64,000 bases of DNA, from assembly GCA_010093705.1 (NCBI GenBank), contig MU006096.1, positions 1,386,004 through 1,450,003 on the forward strand. Reading direction: 5' to 3'. Below, one piece after another: positions 12,855 through 13,095 of this stretch; within the stretch, counting starts at the first letter, position 1, and each line of letters opens with the position of its first letter. The translations under genes were made by a program, and so were the position numbers. A model generated the notes under the pieces. That model was given only the letters and a program-made list of their open reading frames with translations, made no database searches and was not told where the DNA came from. The DNA is from Patellaria atrata CBS 101060 (Eukaryota).

Positions 12855-13095
12855 TATAAAAACCAAGTTCCCTCCCATATTTTCGGATTGCGGCCTTGGC
12901 CGAGTGGTGCACTAGTATTTCGCTATTAAACGACCCAACCTCCTGCGTCACGGGTTCGAGACACTGCGGCTGCTTAAAGATATTCGCGTTTAAAGCTTGA
13001 AAGAAGCCTTCTCACCAAGCACCGTAGTGATTCGCCACAGACAACGATTTCGAGGTTTCTGGGATCCTTCGGGATTTTCTTTTGCAAATTTTTTT
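12855..13095 (+). ncRNA. Putative RNA polymerase III unit: tRNA-like head plus ~110-nt structured body
   Basis: TATAAAAA 12855-12862. A box TGGCCGAGTGG 12897-12907 and B box GGTTCGAGAC 12953-12962. GCGGCCT (12890-12896) pairs 6/7 with CGGCTGC (12967-12973) in tRNA acceptor register. GGATCC-TTCG-GGATTT hairpin ~13062-13077, then T-runs to 13095. Confidence 0.55.

Follow-up and report, generated by a model that had tools for sequence, protein, structure and literature searches.

A putative tRNA-derived Pol III-type unit in a gene-poor interval of Patellaria atrata and its copies in the same genome

The locus and the anatomy of the element

The DNA analysed here (the window) is a stretch of 64,000 nucleotides. 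Its 781-residue Spc98/gamma-tubulin-complex open reading frame (17243-19585, minus strand) shares 98% identity with a protein assigned to Patellaria atrata CBS 101060. The next relatives of this frame, all of them other Dothideomycetes, reach only 59% identity, which suggests that the P. atrata lineage is isolated and that close genomes for an analysis of synteny are lacking. The element described below lies in a gene-poor interval at approximately 11500-15000, where the longest stop-to-stop frame outside a run of N has 141 residues and where a Pfam scan of six frames gave a family match at the cut-off in none of the six, the single weak match having an E-value of 0.072. An earlier note on this DNA had called the interval free of genes, and outside the 355 bases of N this description holds. 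The N run itself (14113-14467) is in the same interval, about 1 kb downstream of the element, and it swells lists of open reading frames with runs of X. The left edge of the interval is the 3' end of a plus-strand neighbor at 8971-11500, which appears in the list of open reading frames as several successive plus-strand frames with hydrophobic stretches. Read by eye, these frames are presumably exons of an intron-bearing membrane-transporter gene, possibly MATE-like. A search of the whole window at the Rfam gathering cut-offs returned one match only, far from the element: the C/D box snoRNA snR61/Z1/Z11 at 56121-56205 (minus strand), which scores 57.5 bits against a cut-off of 45 and is the sole known RNA family in the window.

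The features of the element are collected in Table 1. The copy in the window is referred to below as copy A, and copies B and C are located on other contigs of the same genome.

Table 1. Features of the element in the window (copy A), with remarks on the other copies.
Feature	Position	Strand	Remarks
Upstream 8-mer CACCTTAT	12850-12857	+	Overlaps the start of the TATA box; also precedes copy B, at a nearly equal distance
TATA box TATAAAAA	12855-12862	+	35 nt before the head; ~26 nt before the start of similarity to copy B
Putative 5' leader, 9 nt	12881-12889	+	12881 is the presumed transcription start
Degenerate tRNA-like head, 84 nt	12890-12973	+	Size of a class II tRNA
A box TGGCCGAGTGG	12897-12907	+	tRNA positions 8-18; inside the 39-mer 12887-12925, identical in A and B
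B box GGTTCGAGAC	12953-12962	+	Fits GWTCRAnnC; T stem behind it broken in the window copy
Body, ~115 nt	12974-13088	+	No known-family match
Hairpin GCTT-GAAAG-AAGC	12995-13007	+	
Motif TCGCCACAG, 9-mer	13032-13040	+	Common to partial copy C; copy B has C>T at 13036
3' hairpin GGATCC-TTCG-GGATTT	13062-13077	+	Sequence and predicted fold
T-run, T4	13075-13078	+	
T-run, T4	13080-13083	+	
T-run, T7	13089-13095	+	Likely Pol III terminator

Most of this anatomy had been claimed in the earlier note, and it was recovered on direct inspection of the sequence: the TATA-like box is present 35 nt upstream of an 84-nt segment, the A and B boxes can be read at tRNA positions, and both hairpins and the T-runs are where they had been placed. 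The acceptor stem was likewise read directly and is as had been described, with six of its seven positions paired between 12890-12896 and 12967-12973, including G12892:T12971, which corresponds to a G3:U70 pair. The remainder of the head is poorly preserved. Its D and anticodon arms are unrecognizable in the window copy, and the T stem is paired at only two of five positions. With its ~84 nt, we take the head to stem from a class II tRNA that has decayed, of the Ser/Leu type. No T-run of at least four occurs in the unit before the one that begins at 13075.

Both TGGCCGAGTGG and GGTTCGAGAC fit the published consensus of the Pol III internal boxes (TRGYnnAnnnG and GWTCRAnnC; PMC2566860), and they are separated by the spacing found in tRNA genes. 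A stricter version of the pair (TRGCNNAGTGG, a gap of 28-50 nt, GGTTCRA) occurs once on the two strands of the 64-kb window, compared to a mean of 0.003 occurrences in 300 dinucleotide shuffles, one of which had any. The promoter anatomy is thus more than a product of chance, which upholds the claim that the head is tRNA-derived and carries a type-2 Pol III promoter. A second match to the strict A box, TGGCGTAGTGG at 13552 on the minus strand, lies about 450 nt downstream and has no B box in reach; 0.65 such matches are expected by chance.

Comparison with tRNAs and other RNA families

At its default settings, ARAGORN reported no tRNA gene in the 64-kb window, and none in 12881-13065 of either the window copy or copy B when these were searched separately. 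Only in its relaxed mode (-ps80) did the program return a call, a "tRNA-???" at 12890-12974 with a two-letter anticodon. The Rfam tRNA model gave no match at E<=10, even with the head searched alone. With no default ARAGORN call, no Rfam tRNA match, and no cloverleaf with D, anticodon, and T stems, a functional tRNA can be ruled out, as had been proposed from the sequence beforehand.

Searches of Rfam at E<=10 returned two matches on 12600-13400, one on the head alone, and three on the body alone, all of them noise at 8-13 bits and far under the respective cut-offs. Models of tRNA, 5S, U6, RNase P/MRP, or SRP RNA were not among the matches at this threshold. A 5S rRNA was considered for the body, which is of similar length (~115 nt), and was rejected, as the body gave no 5S match at E<=10. 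The element contains no C or D box, and the ACA and ANANNA words that are present in it do not form an H/ACA layout. The earlier note had recognized no hallmark of U6, SRP, RNase P/MRP, 5S, or C/D RNAs in the body and had suggested a comparison with Rfam; the absence of these hallmarks is borne out, and no known family was found for head or body. The literature was also searched and no description of the element was found there, which is no proof that it is unpublished, since word searches cannot find a sequence.

Copies of the element and their comparison

Contigs of two DNA sequencing runs from one sample (X1 and X2) were matched to positions 6000-14100 of the window at a likeness of at least 85%. 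Both runs are considered to be DNA because their depth is even over genes and spacers; they were the only runs found to contain the stretch, and none recorded as RNA did. The pieces listed comprise seven of seven in X1 and eight of 11 in X2, and more diverged copies fall outside the 85% threshold. At this likeness, and among the matches listed, the family in this genome has two full copies and one that is partial or more diverged. The description of the element as an orphan in the earlier note must accordingly be given up; judged from these contigs of one sample, a small family of this element in the genome is real. Within the 64-kb window there is no second copy, as only words of up to 18 nt match.

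Copy B is approximately 88% identical to the window copy over 12881-13095. A contig of 4947 nt matches 12896-13095 with 25 of 200 letters differing and no gaps, and a contig of 6696 nt joins at 12881; the pairing of upstream with downstream contigs rests on the assembly of the window itself. Between 12881 and 12916 the two copies differ in one letter. The 39-mer at 12887-12925 has a depth of 900 in X1, where the window path has ~438 and the other path 476, and a depth of 666.7 in X2, where the corresponding values are ~304 and 321. The 39-mer thus has about twice the depth of either path, which means that exactly two copies of it are present. We estimate that an identical run of 39 letters in the presence of 25 differences is not remarkable (P roughly 0.2).

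The flanks of copy B are unlike those of the window before 12881 and after ~13100, as judged over 30 letters per flank. These limits of similarity coincide with those of the predicted Pol III transcript, body included, suggesting that the body belongs to the unit and is not a random spacer behind a dead tRNA. The body is ~87% conserved in copy B, with 12 listed differences in 12974-13065 and four unlisted ones in 13066-13095. Divergence between A and B is fairly even along the unit, at ~12%, and the 21 listed differences comprise 11 transitions and 10 transversions. Five of the 21 fall in 12958-12965, and with those five changes copy B has a 4-bp T stem closed by a canonical 7-nt TTCAATT loop. 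The acceptor strands, the A box, and the core of the B box are invariant between A and B, and the D/anticodon region is unrecognizable in both. The T arm of copy B indicates that the family is truly tRNA-derived, the acceptor stem and T arm having been kept after the D and anticodon arms were gone. By the same comparison, the common ancestor of the two copies would already have been without tRNA function but would have possessed the A box, the B box with the T arm, and the acceptor stem.

Upstream of the shared part, CACCTTAT is located at -31 to -24 relative to 12881 in the window and at -30 to -23 in copy B. The simulated chance of an exact run of at least eight letters within an offset of +-2 is 0.0016. 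The 22 letters between CACCTTAT and 12881 have a random level of identity between A and B except for an AAGT in equal register, and copy B is without the strong TATA run of the window copy. Over the 30 letters compared, CACCTTAT has the appearance of a promoter box that was conserved while the rest of the flanks diverged. Its presence before both copies suggests that the promoter was copied too, which would favor an old DNA-level duplication followed by constraint over retroposition.

Copy C, on a contig of 17.7 kb, matches 13054-13093 with four differing letters and a two-letter insertion behind 13070. It shares the 3' half of the body, and TCGCCACAG is present in it with a shift of two positions. 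Like A and B, it ends in a T-run. Its flanks, like those of copy B, were covered for 30 letters on each side.

The body had been described beforehand as structured, and folding gave no support for this claim. The segment 12893-13095 folds at -48.5 kcal/mol compared to -50.8 +/- 4.5 kcal/mol for its shuffles (z = +0.51); of 200 shuffles, 135 reach a fold that is as stable as that of the element or more so. When copy B was modelled by applying the 21 listed differences, the minimum-energy folds of A and B were found to differ, and the joint alifold structure of the two bodies is weak at -9.35 kcal/mol. The hairpins of the body are only 4-6 bp long, and none of them is a long stem of the pre-miRNA type. 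A check by hand of the 21 listed differences between these two sequences found no convincing compensatory pair, and no double compensatory change was found in a helix of at least 4 bp without another mismatch. Two changes, 13036 C>T and 13042 C>T, would leave G-U pairs in a single predicted stem and so lend it weak support at best, and an 8-bp pairing of the window copy (12962-12969 with 13022-13029) is broken at three positions in copy B. The hairpin at 12995-13007 is uninformative with regard to structure because it is invariant between A and B, and the UUCG loop of the 3' hairpin is not conserved, as the two letters inserted behind 13070 in copy C enlarge that loop.

Possible origins of the element and related systems

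We tentatively assign the window copy to a small gene family, dispersed in the genome and specific to this lineage, of tRNA-derived Pol III-type units in which the leader would serve as a promoter and, in copy B, also as a processing handle. We give this reading slightly less than an even chance. The sequences establish the anatomy, the number of copies, and the extent of their similarity, from which transcription, processing, and function are inferred. The degenerate head would no longer fold as a tRNA but would still supply the internal A and B boxes. TFIIIC would bind these boxes, and TFIIIB would be placed with the help of the upstream TATA element. Pol III would then start near 12881, read through the 9-nt leader, the head, and the body of ~115 nt, and stop at the T-runs, among them the T7 run (13089-13095), to give a predicted RNA of ~200-215 nt.

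Both RNase P and RNase Z recognize a minihelix composed of an acceptor stem and a T arm. Copy B, whose T arm is intact, would form such a minihelix with its acceptor stem, from which these enzymes could release a body RNA of ~115-120 nt, and processing at the tRNA-like stem is plausible for this copy. Processing of the window copy, with its T stem paired at two of five positions, is doubtful; because this stem is lost, the window copy may be processed poorly or may be the decaying member of the pair.

The principal alternative is a low-copy, tRNA-derived, SINE-like retroposon. Under this explanation, which we consider rather unlikely, reverse transcription of the Pol III RNA from a source gene led to insertions at two or three sites, and the copies would be relics without a function of their own. 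Its layout is that of the element, with a tRNA-related head carrying A and B boxes followed by a body unrelated to tRNA, and another ascomycete, Aspergillus fumigatus, is reported to have low-copy, SINE-like families related to tRNA, with lengths of 140-493 bp (PMC5063351). The similarity of the dispersed copies runs from the presumed start site, 5' leader included, to the end of the transcript. Conservation of the 9-nt leader up to this start is what retroposition predicts, and it counts against the gene-family reading. The 3' module is also found at a third locus, as is often the case with SINE tails, and the fairly even divergence of ~12%, with its 11 transitions and 10 transversions, is compatible with relics of this kind; neutral drift of a discrete mobile unit fits as well, since the differences are so even and the identical run of 39 letters is unremarkable.

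Other observations weigh against this alternative. The window copy has no target-site duplication: its flanks contain no exact repeat of at least 7 nt except T-rich words, and the one T-rich 8-mer with a single mismatch is at chance level and lies inside the part common to copy B. None of the three copies has an A-rich or simple-repeat tail, as all end in T-runs. At a likeness of at least 85%, two full copies and one partial copy were found among the matches listed, the window copy has a well-placed TATA box, and the recurrence of CACCTTAT at an equal distance upstream of copy B (P ~0.0016) is not expected of retroposed copies. AfuSINE2 of A. fumigatus (PMC5063351) shares several features with the element: a head related to tRNA that carries Pol III boxes, a body that is not, a low copy number, and a length of ~200 bp. 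In contrast to AfuSINE2, the window copy is not flanked by a target-site duplication, its end is a T-run terminator, and it has an upstream box in common with its paralogue. As between ncRNA genes and SINE-like relics, we lean toward a gene family that may have been copied as DNA, promoter included, rather than toward a retroposed SINE.

It is also conceivable, and in our estimation distinctly unlikely, that the element is dead DNA, i.e., an old tRNA pseudogene with its downstream spacer that was duplicated as a short segment and is neither transcribed nor functional. In favor of this reading, the head fails every tRNA test, the T stem of the window copy is lost, and the body has no stable or shared fold and matched no known RNA family. 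Against it, the acceptor strands, the A box, and the core of the B box are invariant between copies whose D/anticodon region had decayed before they split, the third locus retains the 3' part of the body together with a T-run, and the duplicate is bounded by a TATA-spaced start and the T7 terminator, limits that would not be expected of a random segmental duplication. A Helenus-type TRIM, represented here by a solo LTR with a tRNA-like Pol III promoter, is extremely improbable. The LTRs of Helenus elements, which are found in fungi and often persist in solo form, do contain A and B boxes derived from tRNA (PMC10886601). Such elements are defined by TG..CA ends, a 5-bp duplication, and paired LTRs with PBS and PPT. 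In the element, TG..CA ends flanked by a 4-6-bp duplication were absent from every combination of start and end tested, and the 64-kb window has no second copy. The same paper reports Helenus from the Pucciniales and some Agaricomycetes and lists no ascomycete.

In the RPR1 and SNR52 genes of budding yeast, both of them single genes, the RNA proper follows a tRNA-like leader of ~80-85 nt that carries A and B boxes, and the unit ends in a T-run. The element is like them in that its tRNA-like leader carries A and B boxes and the unit ends in a T-run. It is unlike them in that its body is neither an RNase P RNA nor a C/D box snoRNA (no such Rfam match at E<=10 and no C/D box), and in its presence in two to three copies.

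Dicistronic Pol III genes that join a tRNA to another noncoding RNA also include the tRNA-snoRNA genes of plants. In ascomycetes, tRNA-Trp-RUF70 and tRNA-5S of Yarrowia are dicistronic Pol III genes (PMC2566860, where RPR1 is also named as a Pol III gene and promoter). As in the RUF70 type, the element has no terminator directly after its tRNA-shaped part, and a putative downstream RNA of no known class, kept among the dispersed copies, precedes the terminator. In contrast to tRNA-Trp-RUF70, it has no working tRNA as its first cistron, and its body is ~115 nt long in two to three copies, compared to ~70 nt and 13 copies for RUF70. Compensatory changes are reported for RUF70 (PMC2566860), whereas none were found in the two sequences of the element that were compared.

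A third set of related systems comprises tRNA-linked precursors of small RNAs, namely milR-4 of Neurospora, which RNase Z cleavage releases from a tRNA precursor (PMC3547838), and the tRNA-miRNA of MHV68, as cited in the same source. The element resembles them in its tRNA-type Pol III promoter and in the potential of RNase Z to release a downstream RNA by cutting behind the tRNA-like part, which is conceivable for copy B. It differs from them in that its body has no long stem of the pre-miRNA type and in that its tRNA part is degenerate.

These comparisons allow a more specific version of the gene-family reading, which we regard as unlikely in its entirety. It would hold that this dothideomycete has a small Pol III gene family whose degenerate class II tRNA, like the leaders of RPR1 and SNR52, has no role beyond those of promoter and processing handle, that RNase Z frees from it an RNA of ~115-120 nt belonging to no described class, and that the strong upstream TATA box of the window copy and the intact B box and T arm of copy B represent a trade-off. 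To our knowledge, few Pol III transcripts are known in filamentous fungi beyond tRNA, 5S, U6, RNase P, and SRP RNA, and a tRNA-like leader that drives another RNA is rare, the cases that we know of being RPR1, SNR52, RUF70, and milR-4. If transcribed, the element would be a lineage-specific addition to these leader-driven Pol III units, and its two full copies, one with a strong TATA box and a weak T arm and the other with the reverse, would be a natural pair for the study of a trade-off between promoter and processing. If it is a SINE-like relic, it would be one more cause of tRNA-shaped sequences that mislead gene finders. An apparent orphan of this kind can be tested for paralogues using raw assemblies.

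Two scans of metagenomes were made for relatives of the element in other species. A 21-mer from the invariant block was found at no locus, and a pattern composed of the A box with five family-specific letters, a gap, and GGTTC was found at two loci, neither of which has anything like the body. These two loci (L001, 302-357, plus strand; L002, 601-656, minus strand) contain one identical tRNA-shaped sequence, which is unrelated to the body of the element and receives no tRNA call from ARAGORN. It has the same A-box word, is followed by a T4 run, and has a tRNA-Gly(GCC) gene ~230 nt away on the opposite strand.
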